Positions 2,954 through 55,881 of a stretch of DNA of 64,000 bases are shown here, piece by piece. The DNA comes from a virus (taxonomy: Duplodnaviria; Caudoviricetes): IMG/VR virus record IMGVR_UViG_3300021295_000001. One strand, written 5' to 3'. How positions within the stretch are numbered: the first letter of the stretch is position 1; the number at the start of each line of letters is the position of its first letter. Below the pieces are notes generated by a model. The model was not told the origin of the DNA, searched no databases, and was given only the letters and a program-made list of their open reading frames with translations. The position numbers and the translations under genes were made by a program.

Positions 2954-5410
2954 TTGGACACTGAATTCAACAAGGACACTTTGAATGGGCTCAGCGACGA
3001 AGAGCGCGAGTTGGCTTTTTCCATACTCGGCGAGTTCGCCAAGGACGGTTCATCCAAGACGTACGACGAACTGCTTTACGAGGACTATTCGGAGATACCC
3101 GTCGGCATAGAGGAGTTTTTGCACGAAAGAAGGTTCCTCGGGAACGGCCTCACGGACCAAGACGGGAGGTTCACCATATTCCCATATTGGGTGGAGACTC
3201 TCAAGGACATCTTCCCGACGAACACCACGACCAAATACAACACGGTCGTTTTCACGGGCGCCATCGGCTTGGGCAAGTCGACGATAGCCGTCATAATACT
3301 GCTCTACATGCTTTACAGGCTCCTCTGCCTTAAGGACCCATACCTTTACTATGGGATGCAACCGATAGACAAGATAAGCATCTCGCTTATGAACATAACA
3401 ATAGAGAACGCGAAGGGCGTCGCCTTGGACAAGATGAACCAACTGATACTTTCCAGCGAATGGTTCATGTCGCACGGCAAGATGGTAGGCATAGAGAACC
3501 TGATGTACAAACCAGAGAAGCACATCGAGGTGATAACCGCGTCCAGCAACAACCAAGTCATCGGTCGTTGCTTGGATGGGAACACGGTTATATTGACGGA
3601 AGACGGGGAGCACACGCTCAACGAATTGGTCGGCAAAAACATCAAGGTGGTATCCATAGACGACGAAGGCAACCGCGTGCTGAGCGATGAGTGCACGGTT
3701 TTGCCGACGGTCATGACGTCCGAGCAATTCATATTGACATTGGAAGACGAAACGGTCATAGAATGCACGCCAGAACACAGATTCATGATGGCGGACGGCG
3801 CTTATGCGGAGGCCAAGGACCTGAAGCGGGGAGACGAATTGTTCGGCGACAAAGGCATTAGGGTCAAGTCGATACTCCGCTCGTGGTCTTCCGACCCGAA
3901 GGTCATGTACGACGTGGTGGACGCGTACCCACACAACAACTTCCTAGTAAAGACAAATTCTGGGGCCGTGTGCTCGCACAACTGCGTTTTCGCGAATTTC
4001 ACCGATGAGGTCAATTTCGGCCTCACCAACGACGTGGAGAAACTGAAGAAGAAGCAGAAAACGCTAATATCGCAGATAGACGCCCGTATGCGCTCCCGTT
4101 TCCAAAGGGACAAGAACGGGGAGACGTACCTCCCAACCATAAACGTCATCGCGTCCTCGAAGAACAGCGAGCAGTCCTTCCTTGAGGATTACATAGAGAC
4201 CAAGAGGAAGAACGAGTCGAAGACCACGCTCATAGTCGACGAACCGCAGTGGGTCGTCGACAGCCGTAAGGACAGCAAGGTCAAGTTCCAGGTGGCGATA
4301 GGCAACAAGTTCCTCGCCAACGAACTCCTGCCCGTGGGGTGCCCGAAGCAACTCATAGACGAATACAAGGCCAGGGGCTACAGGATAATAGACGTCCCGA
4401 TAGGGTACAGGGAGAAGTTCGACGACGACCTCGACGGCTCGCTGAACGACATCGCTGGCATAGCGACGCAATCCTCCGTCAAATACATAAGCGGTATACG
4501 CTGGAACGAGATAAAGACGGACGCGTACAAGAACCCGTTCACCAAGGAAATCATAGAGGTCGGCACCGCCAAGGACGACTTGGCTCAATACGGCGACTTC
4601 TTCGACATGTCGCGCGTCGAGCCCAACATGCTAGGCCTCCCTATGTACGTGCACCTCGACATGTCCAAAAGCAACGACAAGACGGGCATCGCTGGCGTGT
4701 ACATAATGGGCAAGAGGCCGTCGAAGCCTGGGGTGGACTCGTCTAGGGACATGTTCTACAGGGTCGCGTTCTCGGTATCCGTCAAGGCGCCGAAGGGATA
4801 CGAAATCTCGTTCGACAAGAACAGGGAGTTCATCCGTTGGCTCAGGGCCAAGGGATTCAACGTCAAGGGCGTGTCCAGCGACACCTACCAAGCGGCGCAG
4901 ATACAACAGCAACTCACCGCCGACGGGTTCGACGTGAAGACCATATCCATGGACCGATTGGATTCCGAGACGAAGACGCAACTCCAGTACGCTTACCTCA
5001 AATCCACCATATACGAGCGCAGGATGGACGTTTACTCAGACTGCGACTTCCTCACCGACGAGGTGTTGGGGCTGGAAAGGGAAGGCGACGGGCACATAGA
5101 GCACCCCGAGCAGGGCACGCAGGGCAGTAAGGACGCGATAGACGCCGTCACTGGCGCCCTGTGGAACGCGTCGAAGCACGCCGACGAATACGCGTATGAG
5201 TACGGCGAGAACATGAAGGCGATGCTGGACGTGAACGAGGACGTGAACAAATCCGACAAGAAGCAGATTACCGTCGCGTTCGAGGACGAACTGAAGAGGG
5301 CGTACGCGGATTCCGCGCCGTGGGGCCCGAAAAAGCAGGACGACAGGAATGCGGACGAGAGACTAAGGGCCCAGCAGGAGATGTACAGCCTGATGGGAAT
5401 CATAATATGA
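2954..5410 (+). CDS. terL: terminase large subunit (contains an intein)
   Basis: Walker A GAIGLGKS, Walker B FTDE, RNase H-like nuclease motifs HLDMS...D and SKDAIDA; precedes portal. Confidence 0.92.
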   Translation: MDTEFNKDTLNGLSDEERELAFSILGEFAKDGSSKTYDELLYEDYSEIPVGIEEFLHERRFLGNGLTDQDGRFTIFPYWVETLKDIFPTNTTTKYNTVVFTGAIGLGKSTIAVIILLYMLYRLLCLKDPYLYYGMQPIDKISISLMNITIENAKGVALDKMNQLILSSEWFMSHGKMVGIENLMYKPEKHIEVITASSNNQVIGRCLDGNTVILTEDGEHTLNELVGKNIKVVSIDDEGNRVLSDECTVLPTVMTSEQFILTLEDETVIECTPEHRFMMADGAYAEAKDLKRGDELFGDKGIRVKSILRSWSSDPKVMYDVVDAYPHNNFLVKTNSGAVCSHNCVFANFTDEVNFGLTNDVEKLKKKQKTLISQIDARMRSRFQRDKNGETYLPTINVIASSKNSEQSFLEDYIETKRKNESKTTLIVDEPQWVVDSRKDSKVKFQVAIGNKFLANELLPVGCPKQLIDEYKARGYRIIDVPIGYREKFDDDLDGSLNDIAGIATQSSVKYISGIRWNEIKTDAYKNPFTKEIIEVGTAKDDLAQYGDFFDMSRVEPNMLGLPMYVHLDMSKSNDKTGIAGVYIMGKRPSKPGVDSSRDMFYRVAFSVSVKAPKGYEISFDKNREFIRWLRAKGFNVKGVSSDTYQAAQIQQQLTADGFDVKTISMDRLDSETKTQLQYAYLKSTIYERRMDVYSDCDFLTDEVLGLEREGDGHIEHPEQGTQGSKDAIDAVTGALWNASKHADEYAYEYGENMKAMLDVNEDVNKSDKKQITVAFEDELKRAYADSAPWGPKKQDDRNADERLRAQQEMYSLMGIII
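3569..3982 (+). mobile_element. 138-aa mini-intein in TerL
   Basis: N-terminal CLDGNT, block B IECTPEHRF, block F MYDVVD, C-terminal SHN followed by +1 Cys; no endonuclease domain. Confidence 0.92.
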
Positions 5411-7888: not shown

Positions 7889-9421
7889 ATGACGAACGAG
7901 ACCATAATGGAGACTCTGAAGGTACAGCCCCTTTCCGAGGAGGAAAAGCAGGCCCGCCACATCCTGAAAAGGCTGACTGGGCCCATCGCGTCCTGCAAGG
8001 AAGGCACGAGGAACGGCAGGAAGTACAACCGCGAACTCTGGGAGAAGGCGCTCAACGACGACATCTTCAAGGAGAAGATTGACACGAAGAGCCTGTTCCT
8101 GGAACTCGGCCACCCCGACAGGGACGAGACCGACATGAACTGCGCCTGCGCGTGCATCCCCGAGATGCCCAAGATAATCGACGGCGACCTATACGCGGTG
8201 GTCGACGTACTGGACACCCCAGTCGGAAGGTTGCTAAACACCCTAATCGACTACGGGTTCCAGCCTGGCATCAGTTCCCGTGGCACGGGTGACGTCATAG
8301 AGGGTTACGACGGCGAGTCCGAAGTCGACCCCGAGACGTTCTTCCTGGAAACGTGGGACATAGTCCAGACACCCGCCCTCAAGAAGGCCAGGCTGGCCGT
8401 CACCGAGGGTCTGGAAAAGGAGAAGGCCGACCTCAACGTCGCGTTGAGGGAAAGCCTCAAATCGTCCTCGGAGGAGGACAAGAAGATGATGACGGAGGCG
8501 CTCAGGAACGTGGGCATCGACGTCGTCGAAGAAGAGAAGGTATCAGACGCCGTCGAGGCGGAGGATATAAAGGAAAGCGAATCCGAAGGGTCCGAAAAGG
8601 AAAGCAAGGAAGCCGTGGATGACGGGACCGACGCGTTGATTAAGGGACTCCAGGAGGCGCTCAAGGCCAAAGCGGAATTGGAGGCGACCGTCAAATCGCT
8701 TCGGGAGAGCCTTGCAGTCAGCGATGCTAAGGTGGGCAAACTCGAGGAGGAGAACGGAAGGTGCAAGGGCACAATCGTGCGACTCACCAAACTGTCCGAG
8801 GGTTCCAAGGAATCGGCCAAGAGGATAGCCTCACTAGAGGAGGAACTGAAACGCAAGACCGAGAGCATCAACATGCTCACGAAGGTGACCGCCGAAAGCA
8901 AGGCAAGGATGGACGACGAGAACCGTTCCCTGCGCGAATCCGCGAAACGCGGGTCCGACGAACTCGGGAGACTGAGGAGGGAACTCAAGGAATCCAAAGA
9001 GGCCAACGAGCAGAAGGTACGCTCACTGGAGGAATCGGCGCGCAAGGCTGGCGCCAGGTCCGCGAAGGAAATAGCCGAATTGAAATCACGCCTGGACAAA
9101 TCTTCCAAACTCGCTGAGGGTTACAGGAAGATGGCGAACGACACCATGTCGAGCCTAATCTCGACCAAAGCCGTCCAGTTGGGCGTGTCCGAGAACGACA
9201 TCAGGTCGCGCCTCGGCGAATCCTACACGTTGCAGGACGTGGAGGACGTGTGCGAGTCCCTAAGCGAGTACTCGCTCAACCTCAGCAGGTTGCCTTTCCG
9301 CCTGGACGGGAACGCCACCGTAAGAATCAAGGAATCCAAGATGCCGACCGCCAAGCCGACCCCGTCGTATTACGACGACGACATCGACGAGCACTCGTTG
9401 CGCATCGCGGGCCTCGATTGA
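7889..9421 (+). CDS. prohead protease (T4 gp21-like) fused to a coiled-coil scaffold
   Basis: NGRKY, ELGHP, GISSRGTG and WDIVQTPA motifs; long E/K-rich coiled coil. Confidence 0.9.
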   Translation: MTNETIMETLKVQPLSEEEKQARHILKRLTGPIASCKEGTRNGRKYNRELWEKALNDDIFKEKIDTKSLFLELGHPDRDETDMNCACACIPEMPKIIDGDLYAVVDVLDTPVGRLLNTLIDYGFQPGISSRGTGDVIEGYDGESEVDPETFFLETWDIVQTPALKKARLAVTEGLEKEKADLNVALRESLKSSSEEDKKMMTEALRNVGIDVVEEEKVSDAVEAEDIKESESEGSEKESKEAVDDGTDALIKGLQEALKAKAELEATVKSLRESLAVSDAKVGKLEEENGRCKGTIVRLTKLSEGSKESAKRIASLEEELKRKTESINMLTKVTAESKARMDDENRSLRESAKRGSDELGRLRRELKESKEANEQKVRSLEESARKAGARSAKEIAELKSRLDKSSKLAEGYRKMANDTMSSLISTKAVQLGVSENDIRSRLGESYTLQDVEDVCESLSEYSLNLSRLPFRLDGNATVRIKESKMPTAKPTPSYYDDDIDEHSLRIAGLD

Positions 9422-11017: not shown

Positions 11018-12082
11018 ATTCAGTACATCCAGTTCGTCGCTGGCTCCAACAAGGGCGGAATCCAACGCGGTGCCGTCTTCAACGACCCCTTCCACCTCGG
11101 CCCCATGACCGATGACAGGGTCGACTACACCGCCCAAGCCATCGCCGAGAACGTCGAACTCGACGCCCAAGGCAAGGCCACCCTCGCCTGGGCTCCCATC
11201 AGCGAGTCCTTCACCCCCGTCGTCGTCGGCCAGCCCTCCGCGGTCGTCACCGTCGTCGACGCCGCCACTGGCGAAATCTCCGTCGCTGGCGCCTCTGGCA
11301 CCGCCATCAAGGTCAAGTACCTCTATGACCAGGCCATCATCCCCGCCAACGACATCCCGACCCTCAACATGAGGGTAGAGGGCATCGCCCTCGAGGCCAA
11401 GCCCCGTCGCATCGCCATCTACTTCGACCAGATGGCCGCCTTCCAAGCGAAGACCGAGATGGGCATCGACCTCGGCGACGTCCTCGCCAAGCAGGCCGTC
11501 TCCGAACTCTCCTACGAAATCGACACCGAAATCGTGAAGTTGCTCGCCGAATCCGCCCCGACCGACGTCACCCTCCAGTTCAACAAGAGGATTCCCGTCG
11601 GCATCTCCATGGAACAGCACTACGAGGCCTTCGCCGAGACCATCGAGCGCGCTTCCCAAATCATCTACGACAGGACCCAGCGCTACCACGCCAACTACAT
11701 GGTCTGCGCGTCCAACGTCAAGCCCCTCCTCGCCCTCGTGAGGGGTTGGAAGGCCACTGGCGAAGCGACCCGCAACGGCCCGTACCTCGCTGGCACCCTC
11801 AACGGCCTCAAGGTCTTCGTCTCCCCCGCCATCGAGCCCAACAAGTGGTTCGTGGGCTTCAACGGCGACGACCTCATGACCTCGGCGGCCATCTACGCCC
11901 CCTATATGCTCATCGCCCCGACCGCGCTCCTCAACTTCGCGGATGGTGGCAACAGCCAGGGCTTTATGACCCTTTACGACCTAAAACTCCTCAACGACAA
12001 ACTCCTCGTCGCTGGTGAAATCATCAACGCCAAGGACGTCGAAGCGGTCCAGGTCGTCCCGACCGAAGACGTCGGCGAATAA
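11018..12082 (+). CDS. major capsid protein, exon 2 (spliced product about 455 aa, T4 gp23-like)
   Basis: IALEAKPRRI, LSYEIDTEI, AGTLNGLKVF, AAIYAPY motifs; strongly biased codon usage. Confidence 0.9.
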   Translation: MQYIQFVAGSNKGGIQRGAVFNDPFHLGPMTDDRVDYTAQAIAENVELDAQGKATLAWAPISESFTPVVVGQPSAVVTVVDAATGEISVAGASGTAIKVKYLYDQAIIPANDIPTLNMRVEGIALEAKPRRIAIYFDQMAAFQAKTEMGIDLGDVLAKQAVSELSYEIDTEIVKLLAESAPTDVTLQFNKRIPVGISMEQHYEAFAETIERASQIIYDRTQRYHANYMVCASNVKPLLALVRGWKATGEATRNGPYLAGTLNGLKVFVSPAIEPNKWFVGFNGDDLMTSAAIYAPYMLIAPTALLNFADGGNSQGFMTLYDLKLLNDKLLVAGEIINAKDVEAVQVVPTEDVGE

Positions 12083-13204: not shown

Positions 13205-13228
13205 TGGGACTTATTGGGAGATGAAACC

Positions 13229-14821
13229 ATGGACGTTGTGAATAAGGTCGGTCAGAAGGCGCGCGAGAAGGCGAACGCCGATTTGCTCGAGGCGATGTCG
13301 GGGCGCAGGGACGAGTTGTTCTCGTTCTACGATTCGCATTCGTACAAGGAGACGCTGGACGAGTTCGGCATACCGAGTTACAAGAGGCTCAGCGCGATAC
13401 TGAAGGCTCTTGGGTACGATTTCTCGCGGAAGAAGGGGAACAGCGTGCTCAAGGGGAAGCCGTCCCCGCGTAGCCACGAGAGTTACGTCGCTGGAGGCAG
13501 GAAGAGTTCCGAGACGCAAAGGGACGCGTGGGCGGGGAAAACGGACGAAGAGAAGGGGGAATGGTCCAAGAAGATGGCCGATTCCCATTCGTCCGAGGAG
13601 TACAAAGCGAGGAAATCGAAGGCGCAGAAGGAATGGTACGCATCGCTTTCCGACGATGACAAGAAGGAATACGCCCGCGTGCGTGGCGAAGGCTCCAAGG
13701 CTTGGTGGGATTCACTGACCGAGGACGAGAAGGCGGAGCAGGTGGCGAAGCACATGGAGGCTGGCGCTGGGTGGAACCACGAGAGGATAAGGCAAACCCT
13801 GCGCGATAGATACGGGGTTTCCAACGTGTCGCAAGTACCTTCCGTGAGCGCCAAGGCCGTCGAGGGGATGAGGAAGACGTGCCTTGAGAAATACGGGGTT
13901 GAGTGGAATTGCCAACTCGAGCAATGCAAGACGGCCATTGGGGCCAAATCGTCGAACACGAAGCCGAACGTGGAGTTCGCCACGCTTTTGGATTCCATGG
14001 GTATTGCGTACGAAAGGGAATTCAACCTCGGGAAATACATATACGACTTCAAGGTGGGCGACACGTTGGTCGAAATCAACCCGACCCCGACCCACAATTC
14101 CACGTGGAACCCCTTCGGAGGGGAACCGCTCGACAAACTCTACCACAAGGACAAACTGGCCAACGCCGAGAAGAACGGCTACAGGTGCGTCATGGTGTGG
14201 GACTGGGACGTGCCAGAGAAGGTGGCGTGGTCCCTGAAGGACGCCGAGGTCGTGTACGCCAGGAAATGCGAGGTCAGGGAAATCGGTATGGCGGAATGCT
14301 CCGAGTTCGTCAACAGGCACCATTTCCAGAACGACGCCCGTTGCTCCGTGCGACTGGGCCTGTTCCACGAAGGCGAGTTGGTAAGCGTGATGACGTTCGG
14401 GAAGCCGAGGTACAACGGGAACCACGAGTGGGAACTGATTAGGTACTGTTCGTCCAAGAAGGTAATCGGAGGGGCGAGCAAACTGTTCAGGCGCTTCGTG
14501 GCCGACCACGCGCCGAGGAGCATAGTAAGTTATTGCGACAGGTCCAAGTTCAAGGGTGACCTATACCCGAAACTCGGGTTCGCGCTGACGAAGAGGGGTA
14601 AGCCGTCGAAGCATTGGCACAGCATAAGGACTGGGGAGCACTACACGGACAACCTGCTCAGGCAACAGGGGTTCTCGAGGCTCGTGCACAGGACGGACGC
14701 GTCCAACGAGGATTTGGCGACGTCCGACAACGCGACCCTCATGCGCGAGGAGGGGTTCGCCGAGGTATGGGACTGCGGTCAGGACGTGTACGTTTGGGAA
14801 AACGGCACAAGCGACCGTTGA
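13229..14821 (+). CDS. putative Hef-like free-standing endonuclease (KYGV repeats, PD-(D/E)XK domain, C-terminal GNAT-like domain)
   Basis: TCLEKYGVE repeats; YDF...LVEIN; VYARKCEVREI...GGASKLF...SYCD. Confidence 0.7.
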   Translation: MDVVNKVGQKAREKANADLLEAMSGRRDELFSFYDSHSYKETLDEFGIPSYKRLSAILKALGYDFSRKKGNSVLKGKPSPRSHESYVAGGRKSSETQRDAWAGKTDEEKGEWSKKMADSHSSEEYKARKSKAQKEWYASLSDDDKKEYARVRGEGSKAWWDSLTEDEKAEQVAKHMEAGAGWNHERIRQTLRDRYGVSNVSQVPSVSAKAVEGMRKTCLEKYGVEWNCQLEQCKTAIGAKSSNTKPNVEFATLLDSMGIAYEREFNLGKYIYDFKVGDTLVEINPTPTHNSTWNPFGGEPLDKLYHKDKLANAEKNGYRCVMVWDWDVPEKVAWSLKDAEVVYARKCEVREIGMAECSEFVNRHHFQNDARCSVRLGLFHEGELVSVMTFGKPRYNGNHEWELIRYCSSKKVIGGASKLFRRFVADHAPRSIVSYCDRSKFKGDLYPKLGFALTKRGKPSKHWHSIRTGEHYTDNLLRQQGFSRLVHRTDASNEDLATSDNATLMREEGFAEVWDCGQDVYVWENGTSDR

Positions 14822-17086: not shown

Positions 17087-20000
17087 ATGGTTGACGAAAA
17101 GGATTTTTTGGCGTTCACGGAAGACGACGTAGTCGATTACGCCGAGGTTTATGATTTGGATGAGGGGTTCGGCAAAGGCCCTTCTATTTTGATGCCCGAC
17201 GGAACCGTGTACGACCTGTCCCGCGCGTTCGAAACGCATTTCGGCTTCTTCGAGGTCGTGTTCCAGGGATTGCACGATTCCATATTGGACGAATACCCTG
17301 GCGACACTGACGTCGAGTACGAAGGCTATCTGTCCTACGACCAAGAGAAGATAATGTACCGCGCCGAGGCCGAATTGGGAATCATCACCCTGAACGTCGG
17401 CCTCACGTACAAGGAGCCGAGGGCCAAGGTCGTAATCCTCAGCAAACCGACGGAAGCGCAATACGGCGCGCTCACCGATTTCCTCGATTACGTTCAGCAA
17501 AAAGGCAAGAAGTCCGTCCTTTTCTTCATGGGCGACAAAATAGATTACGTCGAGTACCAGTTCGGAGAGGACCAAGGCACCGACGAAATCATCGACAAGG
17601 TCAGGAGGTATTTCGCCACTGGCAAGATAGTCGAGGCTCAATCGGCCGACGGCATGGCGTACGACGACGTCATCAAGGCCATCGAGGGGTCTGGCTTGTT
17701 CCCGATAACCGCGGACGCGGACGAGACTGGCTTCATCCTCCCAGACGGCAGGTTCCTGAACACGGCCGACAACGAATACGGGATGCCTTGGCACATGGCG
17801 GTCGAGGATTTCCTCGGCGACAAGGGATTGGCGAACGAGAAAGCCCGCGAAAGGTCCTCCGAAAACGACTCTGGCGACGGCTCCCCCACAATCGAGGCGT
17901 TCGGCGCCATAAGGGTAAGCGACGGCGAGGAATACATATGCCTACCGCCAGTGAGGCCGACCGAGCAGGCGTTCTCCGCCCTCGAGGGATGGTTGGCGAA
18001 GATGCACGACGAGCATAGCCTGCAGAGGGTGTACGCGTGCAATTACGAAGGCAATCAGGACGCGTTCTACGACATCGTCCCTGGTGAAGAGAAGGAAATA
18101 GTCGGCAAATTGCGCAGATATTACTCTTCGAACAGATTGATTGAATCCCCCAAAACCCTTAATTTGACAGAATATTTCGAAGAAGAGGACGGCCCGTGTT
18201 TCGTGACGAACGAGGCAAAGGAATTGGCTGATTATCTTAAACGCAAGATAAACGAAGGTCACGGTTCTTACAGGATAGTGCATTTCTACGACCAAGACGT
18301 ATACGCTGTAGCGTCTAGTTACTCCATGGTGCACTACTGGCTTGATTACAACACCAGAAAACAGATGTACGTCGACGGCAACGAGTTCGGCGCTAGGTTA
18401 ATGGCCTATCCGATAGGGGCCAGCGACGACGACAACGTGGACTATTATGACTGCGAGAACAAGGTGTATGAATTCGGCGATTGTGGCATAAAGGTGGCCG
18501 TGATAGGCGACTTCCCCGAGGATTTCGAGAAGACAACGCTATGCAAAGCACTGGGTCCGATAACTAGAAAATACGAATTCGAGAAGGACGACAGCGACAA
18601 ATACGAGAGTATGCGCCTTCCTCACGCAACAGACTTGGGCAAGCCCAAGGAATCGCATGACAAGCAAAACGAACTGACCGAGGCCAAGGATGACGAACTT
18701 AAATTCAAGGATTGGTTGGACTCCGCATACGAAGCCGTCGGATATCAGTGGAGCGACCCGATGTTGGACATTTCCTATGAAATGAGGAGCGCCGATTCTT
18801 GCTTTGATGAGTTCCAAGATTACAGGCGCAGAAACAAAGGCAGGCAAACCGATTACTATTATTGGATGGGTCAAGAACCGAGTATGTTCTTCTCCTTTCT
18901 GGCAAGAAGCATAAGAAAAAAATCGAGCAAAGCCAATGTGAAAAAGGAAGCGGAGGCTGGGGCCGAGTCCGTATACGACGGGAAATTTTGGCGTGTGTAC
19001 AAAATAAACACGTACGAGGCGTCGTGCCATTATGGCAAAGGCACCACGTGGTGCATATCGGAATACGATGACGATTATTGGGACGAATATGCTGAAAAAG
19101 GCATCACATTTTATTTCCTTCTCCCTAAAGACGGGAAAAAATACATGAAGTATGCCATAGGAATCGACCGCAACGGGCATGTTCAGATGATATTCGACCA
19201 AGAGGATTGCAATGTTGAAGGAGTGCCGAACGTACCAGACATACCCGAATTGAGAGAAGTTAGAGATGCCATGGGCTTGGATTTCCATGTGTATTTCAAC
19301 ATGGACGAAGAATTCAGCACATATGACAACTTCAGGGACGCATGGTACGCTGGCGTGAACTGGCCCGAGATGCTATGGTTCCTTTCCGAGGACGAGGAAG
19401 AAATAAAGCGCATAATGCATGACGACCTACGTATGGACGATGTGGAGGTTGTCGAATCCCTAACCGAGGCCAAAGCGGACGTCGATAAGTTCAAGGCTTG
19501 GCTCGCCGACGGGATAAGGGGAAGCAATTTCTCCGAGCCTAATGCCGATGAGGTGGCCAAAGGGTACGCCGATTTCTTCGTGGCAAACAAAAACAGACTC
19601 AAATCCCCGCAGAACGATTTCTATTATTGGATGAAGAAACCGTTCGGGGAATTCGTGTCCTTCATAAGCGACCTCAAGAGAAAGGACGACGAAAAGTCAT
19701 TGTCCAAGTCAAAGGAGGACGAAGGCTCAAAACTCGTGTACGAGGATGAGGATTGGTTTGTGTACGAGATAACCAATTACGAGGCCTCGAAGAAATATGG
19801 CGCCAATACAAAATGGTGCATTTCTGGCTCCAAGCGATGGAACAACGGGGAGAACGGAAGGAAGTTTTTCGACGAATACGCCAGCAAAGGCATCAGGTTT
19901 TTCTTCTTCATCGACAGGAAGGGTGGCAGGAAGTACGCGTTCACCGCTTATCCAGAGGCGTTGGGGGACGACGCCTACGAGATTTACAATGACATGGACG

Positions 20001-22414
20001 TTAGGGTTCCGTTCATCCCTAACGCCCCAGCCGTCGACGAATTGTTGGCCATGTACGGCAAAGACAACGCTTTCTACGGTTCCGTGCAGGACGTGAGGCT
20101 GGAACTGAAATTGGCCCTTGCGGAAGGCAATTACAGCCCAAGCACCCTAAAATGGATTGTCGACGATTATCAATTGAATTACGGAGGAGAGGAAGAGTTC
20201 CTCATCGCCACCGACAAATACCAATTGGTAAACGAATTGGATTGGCTTATACCCGATGAGTATTTGGAGTGGGAGCGTTCCTATGAAGAGGCTGAGGCTT
20301 CCCACAAAGACGACGGCGATGACTCAAATTCCTACTCGGCGTACTGGGACGGCGATTTCTGTCAGATAAGCAACTGGGACGAAATCCCTGGTTGGAGAAA
20401 CGGAAAGGAATACGTAACGGACCCCGCGCATTGGAAGGACGGCATGTACCTATTGTCCCCAACTGGGTACGATGGATTGGAACTTACGATTGAGCCCACG
20501 GACGTCAAGGACGCGGTCATGGTGATATCGTCGTATTACGGACCTGATTTTTTGGCCGACGTTTCACTTGACCTGATGGATGCCGTGAGAAGCGGGGAGT
20601 ATGACGCCAAAAAAGTTGCCGAGGACCTAGGAATGTCCAAGGAAGCGACGGATGCGCTCATAAAATACTCAAAAGAAAAGCACGAGGGTTTGGAACTCAC
20701 CGAAGCAAAGGCGGACCAAGACGCCTTCGTCGACAAATTCGGTCAGGACCTTTTCGACCTGTTCCAGAAATCCAAGGACAGGCTAAAGAACGCCAAGGTC
20801 TCAACCGACATGACTTGGCACGTTAAGAACACGGACCCCAAGGACATGAGGCAGATGCTATACAACCTACGCTCCAAGTCTGTGAAGACTGACGGGGAAG
20901 GCAAGGCGGACCTCACCAAGATACCAGGGAAATACAAATACCTTGGCTCAAAGGGCGGTTATGACGTATACGAGCCTTTGGACGTGGATGCATCCATGGC
21001 GCTCGGCGTGGGCTCTGGTTGGTGCACCACTGGAAGGTACGGGCACGCTGGGGACCTCAATTTCAAACCGTCGCGCGAAGACGCCGAGGAGCATTGGGAC
21101 GAGTATGAGGAAAAGGGGATAAGTTTATTCTACTTCCTGCGAGACGGCGTGGCGAAATACGCGATTGCACTTCACCCAATTACGTATGAAATAAACCAAT
21201 GGATAGGGAAAGATTATCTTCGCAAAACCAACGTCGAGGTATTCAATCAGAATGACGAACAAGATTATGATGCCCTGAAATACCTGCCTTTGGACATCCT
21301 CGACGACGACATCGTTTTCGATGTGGACGAGCACGAGGATGGCTTGGCTTTGTCCGAGGATGGAAGGACCGTGCTACAGGCTAACGAAAACGTCGTCTCC
21401 GTGACCATCCCCGAGGGCGTCACCTCCATCGACGACTATGCCTTCTCTCATTGCTCCTATCTGACATCGGTAGTCATCCCTTCTTCCGTCGCATCTATTG
21501 GTGAGTCGGCATTCCTAGGTTGCTCATCCCTCGCCTCGATTGTCATTCCCTCATCCGTCACTTCCATCGGCGAAGAAGCCTTCGCGGACTGTTCATCTCT
21601 CATCTTGATTACCATCCCCTCATCGGTAACCTCCATCGGGGATTACGCCTTCGAAGGATGCCTCTCCCTTAAATCTGTGACCATCGGAAACAGGTCTTGC
21701 GAAATAGGGGAAAGTGCATTCCCCCAAAAAACGAAGATAATATACGCTGAAACAGAGTCGCTAAAGGAATCTCACGAAACGGTGTGCTACGTCCTTCCCG
21801 ACGGAAGCACCATGCACGGAACCGACCATTTCCTAATGGATTTGGAAATCGGCGACGTGGACGACGAAATGCAAAGCGAGACCGCCAAGTCGTTCGTGAG
21901 GGTGAGGCTCAATTCGTACATCAACTCCCTCACGTTCCCATCGCATGGAATCACCGACGCGCAGGAGGCCAAGGTGAGGGAACTCCTCAATGGGGCGGAC
22001 TTGGAAGGTAAGACAATAGAGGCAAACACATACGATGGCAAATGGTATCCGAGGATGAAGGCCACTGACGAAGTGGCCGACCAAGTCCTGAACTCATACA
22101 AGAGGCATCTGCTAGGCATAAGCGAATCCAGTCGGTCGGTTGACACAGCCAACCAAGGTGGTATAATAGTGTTACGCGAGGGAAACCACATGCAACACAC
22201 CAAAAGGGAATTACGCAAGATGATAGACTGCCTCAATGAGGCGGAACTCAACGAGAGGATTGACGAACTCAAGGCCAAGGTCCTGAGGATGGTCGAATCC
22301 GACAATTCGGACTATTCCGACGACGCGTTCATGCTCAATTACGCTAGGATGGTCCGCGCCAGGGACTACAGGCCCGAAACGCTAAAGGACGGGAGTTGGA
22401 TGTATGGAGAATGA
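17087..22414 (+). CDS. 1775-aa modular (polyvalent-like) protein: 3 LPDG modules, 3 WC(I/T) modules, BspA-type LRRs
   Basis: Internal repeats visible in the translation; modules delimited by IVEA, LIES/LTEY, LTEAK x3, LKES, ISES. Confidence 0.85.
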   Translation: MVDEKDFLAFTEDDVVDYAEVYDLDEGFGKGPSILMPDGTVYDLSRAFETHFGFFEVVFQGLHDSILDEYPGDTDVEYEGYLSYDQEKIMYRAEAELGIITLNVGLTYKEPRAKVVILSKPTEAQYGALTDFLDYVQQKGKKSVLFFMGDKIDYVEYQFGEDQGTDEIIDKVRRYFATGKIVEAQSADGMAYDDVIKAIEGSGLFPITADADETGFILPDGRFLNTADNEYGMPWHMAVEDFLGDKGLANEKARERSSENDSGDGSPTIEAFGAIRVSDGEEYICLPPVRPTEQAFSALEGWLAKMHDEHSLQRVYACNYEGNQDAFYDIVPGEEKEIVGKLRRYYSSNRLIESPKTLNLTEYFEEEDGPCFVTNEAKELADYLKRKINEGHGSYRIVHFYDQDVYAVASSYSMVHYWLDYNTRKQMYVDGNEFGARLMAYPIGASDDDNVDYYDCENKVYEFGDCGIKVAVIGDFPEDFEKTTLCKALGPITRKYEFEKDDSDKYESMRLPHATDLGKPKESHDKQNELTEAKDDELKFKDWLDSAYEAVGYQWSDPMLDISYEMRSADSCFDEFQDYRRRNKGRQTDYYYWMGQEPSMFFSFLARSIRKKSSKANVKKEAEAGAESVYDGKFWRVYKINTYEASCHYGKGTTWCISEYDDDYWDEYAEKGITFYFLLPKDGKKYMKYAIGIDRNGHVQMIFDQEDCNVEGVPNVPDIPELREVRDAMGLDFHVYFNMDEEFSTYDNFRDAWYAGVNWPEMLWFLSEDEEEIKRIMHDDLRMDDVEVVESLTEAKADVDKFKAWLADGIRGSNFSEPNADEVAKGYADFFVANKNRLKSPQNDFYYWMKKPFGEFVSFISDLKRKDDEKSLSKSKEDEGSKLVYEDEDWFVYEITNYEASKKYGANTKWCISGSKRWNNGENGRKFFDEYASKGIRFFFFIDRKGGRKYAFTAYPEALGDDAYEIYNDMDVRVPFIPNAPAVDELLAMYGKDNAFYGSVQDVRLELKLALAEGNYSPSTLKWIVDDYQLNYGGEEEFLIATDKYQLVNELDWLIPDEYLEWERSYEEAEASHKDDGDDSNSYSAYWDGDFCQISNWDEIPGWRNGKEYVTDPAHWKDGMYLLSPTGYDGLELTIEPTDVKDAVMVISSYYGPDFLADVSLDLMDAVRSGEYDAKKVAEDLGMSKEATDALIKYSKEKHEGLELTEAKADQDAFVDKFGQDLFDLFQKSKDRLKNAKVSTDMTWHVKNTDPKDMRQMLYNLRSKSVKTDGEGKADLTKIPGKYKYLGSKGGYDVYEPLDVDASMALGVGSGWCTTGRYGHAGDLNFKPSREDAEEHWDEYEEKGISLFYFLRDGVAKYAIALHPITYEINQWIGKDYLRKTNVEVFNQNDEQDYDALKYLPLDILDDDIVFDVDEHEDGLALSEDGRTVLQANENVVSVTIPEGVTSIDDYAFSHCSYLTSVVIPSSVASIGESAFLGCSSLASIVIPSSVTSIGEEAFADCSSLILITIPSSVTSIGDYAFEGCLSLKSVTIGNRSCEIGESAFPQKTKIIYAETESLKESHETVCYVLPDGSTMHGTDHFLMDLEIGDVDDEMQSETAKSFVRVRLNSYINSLTFPSHGITDAQEAKVRELLNGADLEGKTIEANTYDGKWYPRMKATDEVADQVLNSYKRHLLGISESSRSVDTANQGGIIVLREGNHMQHTKRELRKMIDCLNEAELNERIDELKAKVLRMVESDNSDYSDDAFMLNYARMVRARDYRPETLKDGSWMYGE
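21392..21724 (+). repeat. BspA/LRR_5 leucine-rich repeats (23-aa unit, 4-5 copies)
   Basis: IPSSVTSIGxxAFxxCSSL repeats. Confidence 0.9.
22140..22167 (+). promoter_or_regulatory. consensus sigma70 promoter inside the 3' end of the giant ORF
   Basis: TTGACA-16 nt-(TGG)TATAAT followed by GAGGG SD and in-frame ATG at 22190. Confidence 0.7.
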
Positions 22415-24407
22415 GATGAATAACCCCTTCCCGAAGGAATGGCAATTGTGGAAGATAGTCGTGCCCAACGAGCATAAGGACGACCCAGAGGACCCGAAGC
22501 GCAGGCCAGTCATACTGACCGAGACGTGGGTCGACGAAGGGGAGGACGACGAGAACCTCGACGAATACTACCCCAGTTTCGCCGTCGGGACCACGCAGGT
22601 CGAGCGCTACCAATACGAGCCAGACACGTTCGTTTTCGACGCCCCCGAGCAGTTGGAGGCGTACAAACTTTCCAAACCCACCATATTCAGATTCGGGAAG
22701 TCCGAGGGAAAATTCACCGAGGACCTCACTCTCAAGGATTTCATCGAGAAGGGTGAATACGTCGCCGACATCACGCCAGAGGACAAGGCCCGCATAAAGA
22801 GGTCCCTTAACAACAAGGTGGGACGCTCCACCCTTTTGCACGACGGGCTCCTGAAGGAATCCGCCGTCACCGACGATTCCATCGACTACCTTAGGGATTG
22901 GTTGCAATTGGGCAAGGAACCCCACATGAAGGGATTCGACGCCGACGCCAAGAAGGCGTTCATCGTGTTCCCGACAGGGGTGGACGTCGAGGACCTAAAG
23001 TCCAAAAGCGGAATCGGAACTTGGCTCGACGAGCACGGTTTCGATTGGAAGGCCGAGAAGACCGACTACACCTACAAAACGGTCGGGTCCTTCAACACGA
23101 GGACCATGAGCAAATCTGGCGCTGGTCGCGACAGGACGCTCAAGGACAGGGTCAGGCTCGACGTATCTTGGGGCGACGACGGCCTCAACGAGGACATCGA
23201 GGTCCACGACGAACTCAATCCGAAACTCTTCGACGGGGACGAACTCAAACCAGAGGTCAAGGAAGCCGTCAGGAACATCGCCGACGCGTTCATGGAAGGG
23301 TTGGCCGAGGATGGCATAAAGTTCAACCTCAAGGACATCGTCCTCATCGGCTCCAACGTGAACTACAACTACAACAAGGACAGCGATTTGGACATCCACC
23401 TAATCGCCGATTCGTCTGGATTGGAATGCCCAGACGAACTGTACCCGCTCCTATATTCCGCCTACCGTAGCATCTTCAACAAGAACTACGAGATAACCAT
23501 CAAGGGAATCCCCGCCGAGATTTACGTGGAGATGGACGAACCGCAGGGAAGGTCCAACGGCGTATACTCAATCAACGACGGTTGGGTCAAGAAGCCCGAG
23601 CGCAGGGAAATCCCCGAAATAGACATGGAGGCATTCGAAAAACTCTTCTCCGAGTGGGAGGACAGGTACTTCGAGGTCAAGAAGGAGGCCGAGGAGGAAC
23701 TCGCTTCGCGCGAGCATCCGCTCGACGAGTCCTTGATAACCGAGGGAACAACGTCGGCCGACGTCTACGACTTCGTGGAGGACGTATACGACCTGCGTAA
23801 GGAATCCATCGCCAAGGACGGCGAGTTCGGATTGGGCAACCTCGTTTTCAAGCAGATGCGCGCCCTCGGTTACCTCGACGAACTGAAGGAACTTATAAGG
23901 CAACTTAAGTCGAAGGAACTGTCGCTAGAGAACCTAAGCGAATCGGCCGAGGGGAAATCCGAAGTCGAGGAACTGTTCTGGAACATCAGGGACGAGGACG
24001 ACAAGGTAGCGGTCGCAATCCTCGACAAGCACAACGGGAAGAACATAATGTACGACGCGAAGAAGGACAAGATAGTGCCCGTTCCCAAATCCAAAACCAA
24101 GAACCGCTTCGCCGTCACAAGGGAGCAACTGAGGGACGGCGTGTTGGCCTCAGAGGAGGAGATGCGCTCGTTCATGAAGGAAGTCGGAGGCGACGAAATC
24201 GTGTTCTACGCCGACAGGGACAACCTTTGGGGCGGTGAGTACAGCGTCATAACCAAAGACGAGGAAAAGGCCCGCAAAGCCTGCGCGAAATACAATCAGG
24301 ACGGATACGCCGTCTTCAATTCGAAGGGCGATTACGAGATGTCCCGCGACAGAAACGGCGAGAGAATCAGGGAGAAACCAGTTGACAAAGCCTCCGAACC
24401 CGAGTAA
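22404..24407 (+). CDS. multidomain protein with a Pol-beta-superfamily nucleotidyltransferase domain and a possible PemK-like N-terminus
   Basis: LIGSNVNYNY..DSDLDIH (GS...DxD) motif; KRRPVIL in the N-terminus; LKES, LNED, ESLITEG, LSES linkers. Confidence 0.75.
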   Translation: MENEMNNPFPKEWQLWKIVVPNEHKDDPEDPKRRPVILTETWVDEGEDDENLDEYYPSFAVGTTQVERYQYEPDTFVFDAPEQLEAYKLSKPTIFRFGKSEGKFTEDLTLKDFIEKGEYVADITPEDKARIKRSLNNKVGRSTLLHDGLLKESAVTDDSIDYLRDWLQLGKEPHMKGFDADAKKAFIVFPTGVDVEDLKSKSGIGTWLDEHGFDWKAEKTDYTYKTVGSFNTRTMSKSGAGRDRTLKDRVRLDVSWGDDGLNEDIEVHDELNPKLFDGDELKPEVKEAVRNIADAFMEGLAEDGIKFNLKDIVLIGSNVNYNYNKDSDLDIHLIADSSGLECPDELYPLLYSAYRSIFNKNYEITIKGIPAEIYVEMDEPQGRSNGVYSINDGWVKKPERREIPEIDMEAFEKLFSEWEDRYFEVKKEAEEELASREHPLDESLITEGTTSADVYDFVEDVYDLRKESIAKDGEFGLGNLVFKQMRALGYLDELKELIRQLKSKELSLENLSESAEGKSEVEELFWNIRDEDDKVAVAILDKHNGKNIMYDAKKDKIVPVPKSKTKNRFAVTREQLRDGVLASEEEMRSFMKEVGGDEIVFYADRDNLWGGEYSVITKDEEKARKACAKYNQDGYAVFNSKGDYEMSRDRNGERIREKPVDKASEPE

Positions 24408-26820: not shown

Positions 26821-29466
26821 ATGGCCGAAAAAAGCAGACTGGAGATGTTAGCCTCCAAACTAAACAGGAAACGCGAGGAACTAAACCGCGCTGGTTTTCA
26901 CGTCGAAGGGACAAGCGACATGGACGTCACGTCGAATTTCAACGACGTGATGCCGTTCGTGGCGGTTTACGAGAGCACGGTGATGTCGGAGTTCCCAGAA
27001 CTCGGCTCCATCGACGAGGCCCTATGCGGACACGACCTCTTCACCGAAATGACCGAGAACGGCCTTGATGACAAGACCGCGATAGAATTCATCACGGAGA
27101 CGATTGGGAAGGCGCTTGGGTCGGACGAAGACGACGAAGAACACGTTGGCGAATCCTCGCTGACGGAGGGTGCTTCCAACTTCCACGGGGACGGTGGCGC
27201 CGAATGGTTGCCTTTATTGGTCTTCATGTCTGACGAAGAGGTATGGGACAAAATCAAATACTATGCCGAGCAGGAATACGTCGGCCACGAGGATGAGCAG
27301 GATTGGGACGAGTTCCTCCAGGAATTCGCCGACGAGCACTACGACGAATACTCGCAAGGCGTCTGCGTCTTGGACGACGACGAGATTAAGGCCCTCGAGG
27401 AGAAGATTGACGAGTTCAACTACGAAATTCACAGGCAAGGCGAGTCCATCACTGGTACCGAGGAATACGACGACGGCGACATACTGAAGAACTCCGAGAC
27501 CGAGATTAAGGGCGGTTATTACGAGGGCTATCAGATTTTCACCGAGTTCCAGTACAAGGACGACGAGAACCTATCCGAGGAACTCAGGAAGCCGTTCCAG
27601 GATTTCTACGCGGAAATCAAAAAGGAATTCGGTTTGACCGAACTTTCCGTCGCCTACAAGGCGTCCAACGGGGAGACTGGCTACAGAATCGTCGAGGAGG
27701 CCCGCGACGAAGCCAAGCGCAACCACAGACTCGGAGAATGCGACAAAGTCAAGGAATCCGTGAGTTGGTCCTATTTCGACAAATTCGACCCCATATTCGA
27801 CCAATACCTTCCCGATTACGGGGAGGGCGACGACATGGCCACCCAAGCGGTGACCGCCGTGTGCAAACTCGTTTACAAGTGGTACAACGACGGCGACGTT
27901 TTCGACAACGTCATGCAGAGGTCCATCGTCGGGTTCGGCAACGACCTGGCGTCATACGCGAACTGGCTTTACCACAACGTCCCCGAGACCAGGAAAATCC
28001 TCACGGGAATCAAAAAGGTTAGGAAGGACGGGGATTACGAGGACCTACTCCAAAAATTGGCCGACGCCGTTTTGGACGCCGAAAAACTCGATGGCCTCAG
28101 CCAAAGGAAAAAGGAAGGCTCCGTGTACGAAGGCGACTTCCCGTTCTCATACGAGTTCCGTAGCGAAAGCGAATACGACGAATCTCTTCACGAAGACGAT
28201 GACGAAATCGAGGAAGACGATGAACCTTGGGTTGGATATAAGATTTCCACACCAGATTTTCCAGATTCGGAAGATGTGTATTTCGACGATTTAGAAGAAG
28301 CGAAAAAGGCATTTGATAAACTCATCGACGAAGGAACAAAGCAAGTAAGACTGTATGCAGTTCAGGAGGCGGAATTTTCATATGGCGAGGACATCGAGGA
28401 ATTGTTGTTCTCTTATGACGACGATGACGAAGACGAATCCATCAAGGAGTCCAGTAAGGACTACTACGAATACCCCGCTGGCTCTGGTTGCCACGTAAGG
28501 GAGACCGAATCCAAATTCGTCGCCATAGGCAAAAACGGGGAGACAATCGGCGAATCCGACACCAAGGCTGGAGCCGAGGCCCTAATCGACGCCCAATGCA
28601 AGGAATGCGTTAATGAGGACACCGTGAAGCAGGGTGGCCACTGGGTCAACAAAGGCAAGGAAGGCACCCACGGAAAGTTCAGGACCAAGAAGCAGGCCGA
28701 CGCCCAGCGCAAGGCCATGTTCGCCAACGGATACAAGGAATCCACTGACCTTGGGGAAGGTGTTAAATACCACGATTTCTTGGACGATAAGGAAAAGATG
28801 AGGGATTTCAAAAAACTATCAAAGAGTGATTTCCTTAAATCGTATTCCTATCTGACGGAACTTGAATACGACCTTACCGCTAAAGCGCTTAAAGACAAAA
28901 ATAAAGCCAACGAATCCGCCGACTTGGGAGAATCCAAGAATAGCGATAACCCGTATCTTAAGAACACCCGCATCAAACTCGGCAAAGGCGAGCACGTCAA
29001 CAAAAACGCTGGCGACCCAGTCAAGAACATGCAGGCCTTCAACCACGCCATGGGCGAAGGAATCGACGCCGAAGCCGAACCAGAAGGCGAGTGCGACCAC
29101 GATTGCGAGGCTTCCATGCTCTCCAACGAGTTCAGCAAAAACGTCAAGGACGAATGGGACGCCATCGAGGGATACAACATCCTCAAAACGGAGATAGAGG
29201 CGTCGAGCCTCACCGACGAGGAGAAGGCCAAACTGGTCGCCATCGTCGACGACATCCGCGGTGAGGAATACAGGCACGTTGGCCAATTGGAGACCGCCGT
29301 CAAGACGGTCGCCCCGCAGGCCGACGACATAGAGAAGGGCAAGGAGGAGGCCGACGGGCAGGAAGCGTCCGCCGAGCATCACGAAGAGCCCGAGGAACAC
29401 GCTGAGGAAATCGCCTCCGAAGAGGAGGAGACCATCGTGGAGCCCAAGGAGGGAGAAGGCGAATAG
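26821..29466 (+). CDS. 881-aa acidic modular protein with a C-terminal ferritin-like helix pair
   Basis: AAGGAG SD; many ES.L.E linkers; DEWDAIEGY...DIRGEEYRHVGQL. Confidence 0.8.
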   Translation: MAEKSRLEMLASKLNRKREELNRAGFHVEGTSDMDVTSNFNDVMPFVAVYESTVMSEFPELGSIDEALCGHDLFTEMTENGLDDKTAIEFITETIGKALGSDEDDEEHVGESSLTEGASNFHGDGGAEWLPLLVFMSDEEVWDKIKYYAEQEYVGHEDEQDWDEFLQEFADEHYDEYSQGVCVLDDDEIKALEEKIDEFNYEIHRQGESITGTEEYDDGDILKNSETEIKGGYYEGYQIFTEFQYKDDENLSEELRKPFQDFYAEIKKEFGLTELSVAYKASNGETGYRIVEEARDEAKRNHRLGECDKVKESVSWSYFDKFDPIFDQYLPDYGEGDDMATQAVTAVCKLVYKWYNDGDVFDNVMQRSIVGFGNDLASYANWLYHNVPETRKILTGIKKVRKDGDYEDLLQKLADAVLDAEKLDGLSQRKKEGSVYEGDFPFSYEFRSESEYDESLHEDDDEIEEDDEPWVGYKISTPDFPDSEDVYFDDLEEAKKAFDKLIDEGTKQVRLYAVQEAEFSYGEDIEELLFSYDDDDEDESIKESSKDYYEYPAGSGCHVRETESKFVAIGKNGETIGESDTKAGAEALIDAQCKECVNEDTVKQGGHWVNKGKEGTHGKFRTKKQADAQRKAMFANGYKESTDLGEGVKYHDFLDDKEKMRDFKKLSKSDFLKSYSYLTELEYDLTAKALKDKNKANESADLGESKNSDNPYLKNTRIKLGKGEHVNKNAGDPVKNMQAFNHAMGEGIDAEAEPEGECDHDCEASMLSNEFSKNVKDEWDAIEGYNILKTEIEASSLTDEEKAKLVAIVDDIRGEEYRHVGQLETAVKTVAPQADDIEKGKEEADGQEASAEHHEEPEEHAEEIASEEEETIVEPKEGEGE

Positions 29467-29504: not shown

Positions 29505-31184
29505 ATGTTCGGAATCAAATACGCGTTCATGCCACTCGTTCAATACGAGGACGAAGAGGAGGCCTACATAAGGTCTTTGCGCGAGGCCAAGGAAACCACG
29601 TTCGACATATCCGAGGATGGAATGTTCGACAGGGGCAACGCCTATTTCTACGCGAGGACTGGTAGCAAGGTCGATTTGGACGGCAAGGAATACACCGTCA
29701 CGACCGACGAGGAAGGCAACCACAGGATTGGCTATTCCGACACGATATACCTTAAGGACGCCGACGGCAACGTAACGACCGTGTCCAAGGCCGAGTTCAT
29801 CGAGAAGGCCACGCTCCTGAAAGAGGAGGCCAAGCCCGAGGAATACGGCGTTTGGCAGAACGTCGAGGCATCGAAGTACAAGAGCGGTGACCTCGCCGTT
29901 GGCTTCGTCGCCAAAGGCATGTCCAAGGAGGAAGCCGAGGCCAAAGCCAAGGAACTCTCCGACAAATACTGCAAATTCGGCGCTTGCACCTACGAGGTCA
30001 GGAAGGTCGACGAGTCGTTGGCCGAATCAGCCATCGTCGAGGAGCCCATCAAGTTGCTCGAACCCAAGTTCGATTCCAGGAAATCCTTCTACAAGAAAGC
30101 CAAGGTCGACGAAAGGGAAGACGGCACGAAGATACTTTGGTCGTACAACACCCCAGTCTGCAAGATAAAGGACGGGAAGGCCACGTTGCTCAAGAGGGGT
30201 TACCTCGGATGGTTCTCCTCCCCCACCACGCTCCGCCACGTGAAGGACTTCCTCCAGCAGAACGGATTCAAGATAGGTTCGAAATCGGAACTCGCCAAGA
30301 TGTACGAAACCGAACGCTACGACGAGTCGCTAATCACCGAGGCGGACGCCATGAAGGCCAACCTAGACGACGAGAAGGAGGTCGGGGAAGCCAAGGAAAT
30401 CCTGACCAAGGAACACGACGAGGAAGTGGAGCAGATAGTGGACGTCGACGCCAACACCGTCGCGGAACTCAAGGACTCCTACGTCGGTAACGTCATATTG
30501 CAATGCCCCGTGTGCAGGACGTTGCTCTACAAGAAGCCAGACGCCATCGAGAAAGCCGAGGATTCCGACATATACAACGTCGGCGAGGCCTGCCTGCATT
30601 GCGGTAGCGAGGACGGATACGGCTTGGTTGGCCAGGTCGCCGAACTGTCCGTGAAACCAGAAGTGGAGGACGACTCCACCACTGGCAAGGAAACAGATTC
30701 CCCCGACGTCGAGCCCGACAAGGAGGGCACCGAGTCCGAGGACGAGGTAGGCGTTGAGGTCGAGGAGACCGAGAAGGTCGGGGAACCCGTGGTAGAGGAA
30801 TCGCTCGCCAAGCCCGCAGAGGCCGACGAATTCGACGACGCGTCGTTCAACGCGCTGGTCACCGATTTCCTTACCGAGACTTACAACAACGTCACGGGAT
30901 TCACCGCCAACGAGGTGACGAAGGAAGGCTCGGACATAACCGTGTCTGGCTCAATCGCCTACGCGAGCGGTAAGGAACGCTCGACCGAGTTCAAACTGAA
31001 GGAGTCCGTCGAAGGCGGTTCAATCTCCTGGGAGGGTTCGAACCCGACGTTCGCTGGCGGTTCGTTCAGATTCGACGTCGTCAGCGAGGGGAACGTGGCG
31101 AAGGCCAAGGCCCTGTCCTACGAGATTGAGGCCAAGTCCGTCAACGAGTCCTACAAGGTCAAGGGGCGCATATCCCGCGCCTAA
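29505..31184 (+). CDS. 559-aa modular protein with a zinc-ribbon (CPVC/CLHC)
   Basis: AGGAGG SD; LREA, ESLAES, ESLITEA, LKES linkers. Confidence 0.8.
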   Translation: MFGIKYAFMPLVQYEDEEEAYIRSLREAKETTFDISEDGMFDRGNAYFYARTGSKVDLDGKEYTVTTDEEGNHRIGYSDTIYLKDADGNVTTVSKAEFIEKATLLKEEAKPEEYGVWQNVEASKYKSGDLAVGFVAKGMSKEEAEAKAKELSDKYCKFGACTYEVRKVDESLAESAIVEEPIKLLEPKFDSRKSFYKKAKVDEREDGTKILWSYNTPVCKIKDGKATLLKRGYLGWFSSPTTLRHVKDFLQQNGFKIGSKSELAKMYETERYDESLITEADAMKANLDDEKEVGEAKEILTKEHDEEVEQIVDVDANTVAELKDSYVGNVILQCPVCRTLLYKKPDAIEKAEDSDIYNVGEACLHCGSEDGYGLVGQVAELSVKPEVEDDSTTGKETDSPDVEPDKEGTESEDEVGVEVEETEKVGEPVVEESLAKPAEADEFDDASFNALVTDFLTETYNNVTGFTANEVTKEGSDITVSGSIAYASGKERSTEFKLKESVEGGSISWEGSNPTFAGGSFRFDVVSEGNVAKAKALSYEIEAKSVNESYKVKGRISRA

Positions 31185-55878: not shown

Positions 55879-55881
55879 ATT

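Follow-up and report, generated by a model that had tools for sequence, protein, structure and literature searches.

The 64,000-nucleotide stretch of DNA analysed here (the window) comes from an uncultured tailed phage of about 150 kb, whose open reading frame (ORF) at 17087-22414 (+) encodes a protein of 1775 aa. This protein is a series of swappable modules joined by short Leu/Ile-x-Glu linkers, with at least ten modules from at least five families gathered in a single phage ORF. It is probably a head-packaged cargo polyprotein of the polyvalent class, which the prohead protease of the phage would cut at the [LI]-x-E linkers; loading into the capsid and cutting are suggested because the linkers resemble the cutting sites of the phage's own head protease. 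The protein would be made late, from a head-gene block of terminase, portal, prohead protease, capsid and adaptor genes, and the T4-type protease would most likely cut after the linker Glu, inside the prohead, releasing the A units, module B and three units composed of a C and its partner. Such released units would be the equivalents of stand-alone proteins, each a C followed by a variable tail, that are encoded by tandem genes in other phages. The pieces would exit the capsid together with the DNA, be injected and may exert a biochemical activity.

Module anatomy and domain families

The modules follow one another in the order A, A, B, C with a short tail, C with D, C with an LRR, A and a C-terminal helix (Table 1). 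A sequence-only reading of the same DNA had given the span as 17087-22130; its start holds, while position 22130 falls in an ISES linker, 284 nt or 94 codons before the stop.

Table 1. Modules of the 1775-aa protein and the prohead protease gene of the window
Feature	Position	Strand	Details
T4-type prohead protease (S77), long C-terminal tail	7889..9421	+	Pfam Peptidase_S77, E 1.9e-12; predicted processing enzyme
Module A1	17087..17635	+	aa 1-183; ends at I-V-E linker
Module A2	17636..18145	+	aa 184-353; ends L-I-E; second site L-T-E at aa 360-362
Module B	18173..18673	+	aa 363-529; no Pfam, PHROG or NCBIfam match
Module C1	18674..19459	+	core aa 530-728 and 63-aa tail aa 729-791
Module C2 core	19460..20068	+	aa 792-994; AlphaFold2 model, PHROG 28193
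Module D	20069..20695	+	aa 995-1203; recurrent C-terminal partner of C cores
Module C3	20696..21376	+	core aa 1204-1377 and recurrent connector aa 1378-1430
BspA-type LRR	21383..21736	+	aa 1433-1550; Pfam LRR_5
Module A3	21770..22126	+	aa 1562-1680; probable diverged, shortened A; flanked by L-K-E and I-S-E
C-terminal helical module, 77 aa	22181..22414 (including stop codon)	+	aa 1699-1775; similarity to L012 orthologue

The sole Pfam match in the protein is the BspA-type LRR (LRR_5, PF13306; 119.7 bits against a gathering cutoff of 27.7, E 9.6e-35), and NCBIfam returned only partial LRR matches; modules A, B, C and D matched no entry of either database. When HMMs of A and C were run on every six-frame ORF in the window, the matches were confined to the 17087-22414 ORF. 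Megablast with 10 kb of the window gave no match, an IMG/VR locus search with the whole protein or with the A alignment returned nothing, and a homologue search with the whole protein was dominated by LRR proteins and was uninformative.

Module C occurs three times, as the sequence-only reading had proposed, and each copy opens at LTEAK, a string found exactly three times in the ORF (aa 530, 792 and 1204; nt 18674, 19460 and 20696). The Trp-Cys pair likewise occurs exactly three times (aa 655, 910 and 1312). The similarity among the copies is far above chance, with segment BLAST giving 37% identity over 202 aa for C1-C2 (E 1e-28), 28% for C2-C3 (E 2e-9) and 27% for C1-C3 (E 2e-7), and the three LTEAK starts belong to an L-x-E-[ASG]-K motif with which C begins family-wide and which also fits a T4-type protease site, a feature that the sequence-only reading had not noted. 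A profile of the three cores, searched against 1.84 billion representatives (clusters at 50% identity), retrieved 4,641 of them with a threshold of E<=1e-3, of which 890 pass 1e-10 and 108 pass 1e-30, and many of these proteins hold two to five C copies. Residues W119 and C120 (C2 numbering) are invariant in 180/180 C copies, G114 is kept in 178, and D53, Y140, K158, E3 and D180 are nearly invariant. The PHROGs collection places the C2 stretch in two families without annotated function (phrog_28193, E 1.2e-17), and tblastn of the C1-C2 stretch against GenBank phages found a sole match, in Salicola phage SCTP-2 (7e-4).

The AlphaFold2 model of C2, computed from a 65-row alignment, is a compact alpha/beta domain (pLDDT 91.5), comprising four helices in its N-terminal part (residues 1-88), followed by an alpha/beta core (residues 89-185) with G905, W910 and C911 of the full-length protein, in which a conserved loop leads into a short helix that the Cys opens. 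The model had no match in the PDB, and a PDB sequence search with the C profile gave chance matches only; in BFVD, the best Foldseek matches were uncharacterised phage proteins, down to 8e-11. The A1 model is also a compact alpha/beta domain (pLDDT 74.7), without a significant PDB match. A fibre or other continuous structural protein, the alternative that the sequence-only reading had set against its modules, is rejected on the basis of these two globular models.

For module A, which had also been described as occurring three times, the evidence is graded. A1 and A2 resemble each other weakly by BLAST (E 8e-5), and both are clear matches (102 and 78.5 bits) to an A-family HMM that was built from other proteins, with the 1775-aa protein left out. 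A3 scores 10.7 bits against this HMM (conditional E 2e-5), in an alignment that spans the PDG, His and PTxxQ motifs, and an iterated search seeded with A3 retrieves A1, A2 and the same A copies in other proteins; A3 is therefore probably a strongly diverged, shortened copy of A. Within the family, two residues are invariant (G39 and H51) and four nearly so (N103, Q125, G179 and E183), and A is present one to four times in about 30 of the long C-bearing proteins examined. Stand-alone A proteins of 77-333 aa were not found, an Atlas search with A gave no usable match, and in tblastn the N-terminal 529 aa matched no GenBank phage.

Each C is followed by a different C-terminal tail, in agreement with the earlier description: the 63-aa tail after C1, the 209-aa module D after C2, and a connector of about 50 aa with the LRR after C3. 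The C1 tail is conserved only in the orthologue of a sister phage, L012 (described below). In an iterated search, at least 40 other proteins had D directly behind a C core, a recurrence that the sequence-only reading had missed; the C3 connector (aa 1378-1430) is recurrent in 17 proteins, and C is paired with LRR_5 in 17 of 65 short C-family members. Module B has one relative, in the L012 orthologue, with weak similarity (27.7% identity, E 2.5e-6), and an iterated search found no B family beyond it. Of the earlier idea of paralogous effectors with different specificities, the paralogy of the domains and the different partner of each C stand. We propose that C, with its invariant Trp-Cys, serves as a conserved N-terminal domain to which variable partners (D, LRR) are joined, and that these partners would give each unit its specificity.

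Head genes, module exchange and linkers

In the window, a large terminase gene (with a probable intein), a T4-like portal, the S77 prohead protease, a Gp23-like capsid protein and a homing endonuclease are followed by three small ORFs, the 1775-aa ORF, more modular ORFs, a head-tail adaptor and a sheath. The 1775-aa gene thus lies between the capsid and adaptor genes, with terminase, portal and protease upstream. In IMG/VR, 176 stretches encode C relatives, and 118 C-bearing ORFs in 77 loci were kept. The C domain lies within the first 60 residues in 94 of the 114 single-C ORFs of these loci, whose median length is 430 aa and whose tails are variable. Tandem arrays are common, with two or more C genes in 26/77 loci and three or more in ten. 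A homologue of terminase, portal, protease, capsid or sheath flanks the C gene in 24/77 loci (with a gap of <=150 bp in nine), a count obtained with the window's own proteins as probes, by which related phages are covered best.

For one member of the family, presence in virions is on record. EST35_0205 of Pseudomonas phage PA5oct (QCG76086.1, 482 aa) is annotated as "structural protein, ESI-MS/MS"; it is clearly a C-family member, as it matches the C HMM with 36.7 bits (E 6e-13, local search of nine PA5oct proteins), contains GKGTRWC and is matched by the C2 model in Foldseek (BFVD, 1.8e-5). Like the units discussed here, it carries C near its N-terminus; it differs in being a single-unit protein of a jumbo phage, without A, D or LRR.

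Module number and order were also compared across related phages. The sister phage L012 (IMGVR_UViG_3300028886_000052, 149 kb) shares its gene order with the window, and its orthologue (L012:5144-11536) has a different module set, in the order A, GNAT, DUF5662, ART-PolyVal, C1 with tail, C2 with D, and C-terminal helix. Identity between the two proteins is 51% over aa 1-183, 44.5% over aa 530-1207 and 50% over aa 1695-1774. The unit of C3 and LRR (aa 1204-1545) is instead 45% identical to a unit in the next gene of L012, where it is fused to a homologue of window ORF 22404-24407. Other relatives show the orders A-A-A-...-C-...-C, A-A-A-...-C and C-...-A-A-A-C; together with L012, these orders indicate that modules are re-assorted even between adjacent genes.

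The junctions of this re-assortment coincide with the linkers: all four homology-block junctions with L012 (aa 183, 530, 1204 and 1695), which are defined independently of our module borders, lie on [LI]-x-E sites. The 1775-aa protein has 25 such sites, 11 of which lie within 7 aa of its 11 internal borders against about 2.3 expected, a comparison to be read with the borders being partly set by where homology begins and [LI]xE being a short motif. The candidate linker sites, named by the position of their Glu, include IVE183, LIE353, LTE362, LTE532, LTE794, LTE1206, LKE1561, ISE1680 and LRE1698. A copies elsewhere end in G-x-h-x-E in 43/43 cases, often followed by S-L-x-E, and an h-x-E-[ASG]-[KRN] start, for which the background is 0.002 per residue, is present in 118 of 180 C copies. 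The same class of motif is found in neighbouring gene products. The C-terminal approximately 325 aa of the S77 protease ORF contain 11 [LI]-x-E-[SAG] sites, as expected of a scaffold-like tail that is degraded; I-S-E|S is present in the capsid protein (aa 32-34), and DES-L-x-E linkers occur in the modular ORFs nearby. Proteases of the T4 type cleave after Glu in such motifs (PMC5694885).

Comparison with known systems and alternative readings

Polyvalent proteins have been defined as polypeptides of phages or conjugative elements with 2-15 distinct domains, among which ART-PolyVal, MPTase/SprT-like, GNAT and ParB are hallmarks, the phage versions being found among the late or virion genes of the portal-terminase system (Iyer, Burroughs, Anand, de Souza, Aravind, 2017; PMC5512222). 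The 1775-aa protein is likewise one long multidomain polypeptide encoded beside portal-terminase head genes, and its modules are shared with hallmark-bearing relatives: among 26 long C-bearing relatives, ART-PolyVal is present in 14, LRR_5 in seven and a SprT-like domain in four. Its placement with the polyvalent proteins, which follows from the 14 relatives with ART-PolyVal, is supported at the level of domain composition. For polyvalent proteins, processing by embedded peptidases has been proposed (PMC5512222), whereas the linkers of the 1775-aa protein match the prohead protease motif instead. It further differs from them in having no catalogued enzymatic domain (Pfam search) and no LPD domain.

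The internal proteins of T4 and Alt carry capsid-targeting sequences that are cut by gp21 at L/I-x-E, the cleavage motif of T4 itself. The phage studied here resembles this system in encoding an S77 protease of the T4 type and in having hydrophobic-x-Glu sites followed by small residues, and the motif of stand-alone C proteins, 3-25 aa from the N-terminus, resembles a short propeptide. The T4 cargo differs in consisting of separate small proteins with one N-terminal cut, whereas the 1775-aa protein consists of fused units with a candidate site at each border. The ejection or inner-body proteins of phiKZ, 201phi2-1 and SPN3US are paralogous, head-internal and processed after Glu by a T4-type protease (PMC5694885); their genes are clustered and several sites are possible per protein, as here, but their motif is A/S/G-x-E, their propeptides are long and they are not fused into multi-unit chains. 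No sequence similarity of A or C to these inner-body proteins was found.

A rival explanation is that the whole chain is packaged and delivered intact, as an uncleaved polyvalent protein in which the L-x-E motifs are helix caps and recombination-tolerant domain ends. Some polyvalent-type proteins, among them N4 vRNAP, ArdC and TraC1, are moved unprocessed (PMC5512222), and in the C2 model LTE opens helix 1, the L-x-E-[AS]-K-x-D start of C forming its N-cap. Given this position and the conservation of K5 and D7 in addition to E3, the C start motif could be structural rather than a cleavage site; stand-alone members, moreover, retain it beside the start codon, where it is not obviously needed by a cut site. 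Intact delivery nevertheless seems unlikely to us, since it leaves aside the concentration of the same motif class in the scaffold-like tail of the protease, the closing of every A module as well as the opening of the C modules by this motif, its presence at all four block junctions with L012, and the tandem stand-alone C genes of other phages that mirror the fused units. A role at the virion surface can also be considered, in which the LRR and other modules would not be injected but exposed on capsid or tail, where they would adhere to host cells or to gut or rumen surfaces: LRR_5 is typical of bacterial surface adhesins, the best partial NCBIfam matches are adhesin HupY/LrrG and Gli349, and Bacillus phage SPG24 has a BspA-LRR protein with the annotation "minor head protein". 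This reading is very improbable, as the LRR accounts for just 118 of the 1775 residues, searches of the protein with Pfam and PHROG showed no signal, Ig-like, fibre or capsid-binding domain, the gene sits between capsid and adaptor genes and away from tail-fibre genes, and relatives join the same modules to enzymes with an intracellular action (ART-PolyVal, GNAT and SprT-like).

A further proposal, which would fit a cleaved as well as an uncleaved chain, is that C works as a cysteine-dependent enzyme and is a distant relative of PcfJ, with its host target set by the partner domain. It takes up the suggestion of the sequence-only reading that the Trp-Cys may be catalytic and remotely PcfJ-like. 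The invariance of Trp-Cys, the near-invariance of G114 and the position of the Cys at the beginning of a short helix behind a conserved loop are in its favour, as are twelve "PcfJ-like" viral models at BFVD ranks 23-46, which are weak matches (E 5e-4 to 0.2, TM 0.22-0.35), and one Atlas cluster that is 33% PcfJ. The order G-x4-[HW]-C-[VI]-x-[SG] ... Y ... G ... hydrophobic strand is common to C and PcfJ (PF14284; pCF10), both having a strand, a helix, G-x4-aromatic/His-Cys, a helix and two hydrophobic strands; PcfJ differs in its H-C in place of W-C, and the N-terminal helical part of C is unlike it. A search for a solved structure of PcfJ found none. Pfam PcfJ, however, has no match at E<=1 in the 1775-aa protein and none at E<=0.1 in 65 short C-family members, and among the 26 long relatives one has a match (1.7e-4), counted anywhere in the chain. 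A reference set was assembled from pCF10 PcfJ (Pfam PcfJ 1.1e-43, aa 287-433) and ten phage homologues. In hhalign, the 180 C copies scored 12.8 (cores only) to 13.6 against these 11 PcfJ domains, with a probability below 0.5% (0.17% at 13.6), the reversed control scoring 9.2; W.VY.I..YEAS.KYG..TKWCISG of C was paired with Y.ii.P...li.EG..L.HCV.S of PcfJ, as expected. Homology to PcfJ is thus unsupported by hhalign, in which the score of the cores (12.8) is on a par with that of the reversed control (9.2), and with Pfam also silent what points to PcfJ is the weak structure matches and the motif order. In addition, the 180 C copies share no His or other residue that would be an obvious catalytic partner for the Cys, the C2 model matches no enzyme fold in the PDB, PcfJ itself has no known function, and the literature that names PcfJ together with phages is sparse. 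We therefore hold the enzyme reading as tentative and rather doubtful.

Significance for phage proteins with probable delivery from the head

A more far-reaching and speculative reading, which we consider unlikely, sees C as a general capsid-loading handle, a folded Trp-Cys domain that would dock any fused partner (LRR, D or enzymes) into the proheads of many unrelated tailed phages, with the L-x-E linkers allowing the head protease to free the units from one another, whether these are encoded by tandem genes or within a single polyprotein. If it were true, C would do widely among phages, and as a whole domain, what the capsid-targeting sequence does in T4, and phages would possess a natural plug-and-play loading of proteins into their heads. 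Modules A and C represent two sizeable phage domain families new to Pfam and NCBIfam, and for C there are now several footholds, namely a high-confidence fold model without a PDB match, the invariant Trp-Cys, a consistent head-gene context and one member whose annotation records its detection in virions by mass spectrometry. The comparison with L012, in which whole units move between adjacent genes exactly at protease-type linkers, offers a concrete, testable rule by which phages would put together and reshuffle the proteins they deliver from the head, and this is of relevance for the search for anti-defence and host-takeover effectors as well as for the engineering of protein cargo into phage capsids.

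Head genes of the window

The intein-bearing ORF matches a large-terminase PHROG weakly (4e-6), and its intein-free homologues in related IMG/VR phages, of about 680 aa, adjoin the portal gene. In the window, too, the portal gene lies directly downstream of this ORF. With its 11 [LI]-x-E-[SAG] sites, the tail of the prohead protease resembles a scaffold fused to the enzyme or an extension that degrades itself. Near the short Gp23-like capsid ORF, inside the head block, lies a homing or HNH endonuclease. Elsewhere, at 54001-56000, the G+C content is 0.385, versus about 0.52 in the rest of the window.

Features of the window (nucleotide positions) and of the metagenome protein P0121 (residues)
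Feature	Position	Strand	Length	Remarks
Intein-bearing ORF	2954-5410	+	818 aa	Intein_splicing 8e-8, PT-HINT
Prohead protease	7889-9421	+	510 aa	S77 domain in about the first 200 residues
Gp23-like capsid ORF	11105-12082	+	only 325 aa	covers profile positions 128-349 of 376
Homing or HNH endonuclease	13214-14821	+		Mom-like part; PHROG 3339, 2.5e-54
Large ORF near 1775-aa gene	22404-24407	+		DES-L-x-E linkers
Large ORF near 1775-aa gene	26821-29466	+		DES-L-x-E linkers
Large ORF near 1775-aa gene	29505-31184	+		DES-L-x-E linkers
P0121 (ENA)	22-194, 912-1093		1194 aa	A modules

Modular proteins and their linkers

The same DES-L-x-E linkers occur in the three large ORFs neighbouring the 1775-aa gene, and sister phages show these ORFs, too, with their parts re-assorted; at one sister-phage locus (L012), pieces of the ORF starting at 22404 are split between two ORFs. 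P0121 is another polyprotein with A modules, with linkers of the NES-L-x-E type, two GNAT-like stretches, both weak, and two occurrences of a 'GNHR' motif that, judged by eye, resembles ParB-type nuclease motifs.

C-family genes elsewhere and the surroundings of PcfJ

Four IMG/VR loci (L036, L043, L052 and L072) each hold three or four tandem C-family genes, encoding proteins of 300-620 aa with an N-terminal C module and tails that all differ. The C-family member EST35_0205 of phage PA5oct (L091:8474-9922) stands within a row of like-sized genes (about 480-530 aa). Many of these bear the annotation of a structural protein detected by MS; the others in this row gave no match to the C HMM. On pCF10 (L001:15874-17984), the gene overlapping pcfJ is annotated in RefSeq as 'Cas9 inhibitor AcrIIA9 family', which hints that PcfJ is sited in an anti-defence neighbourhood.
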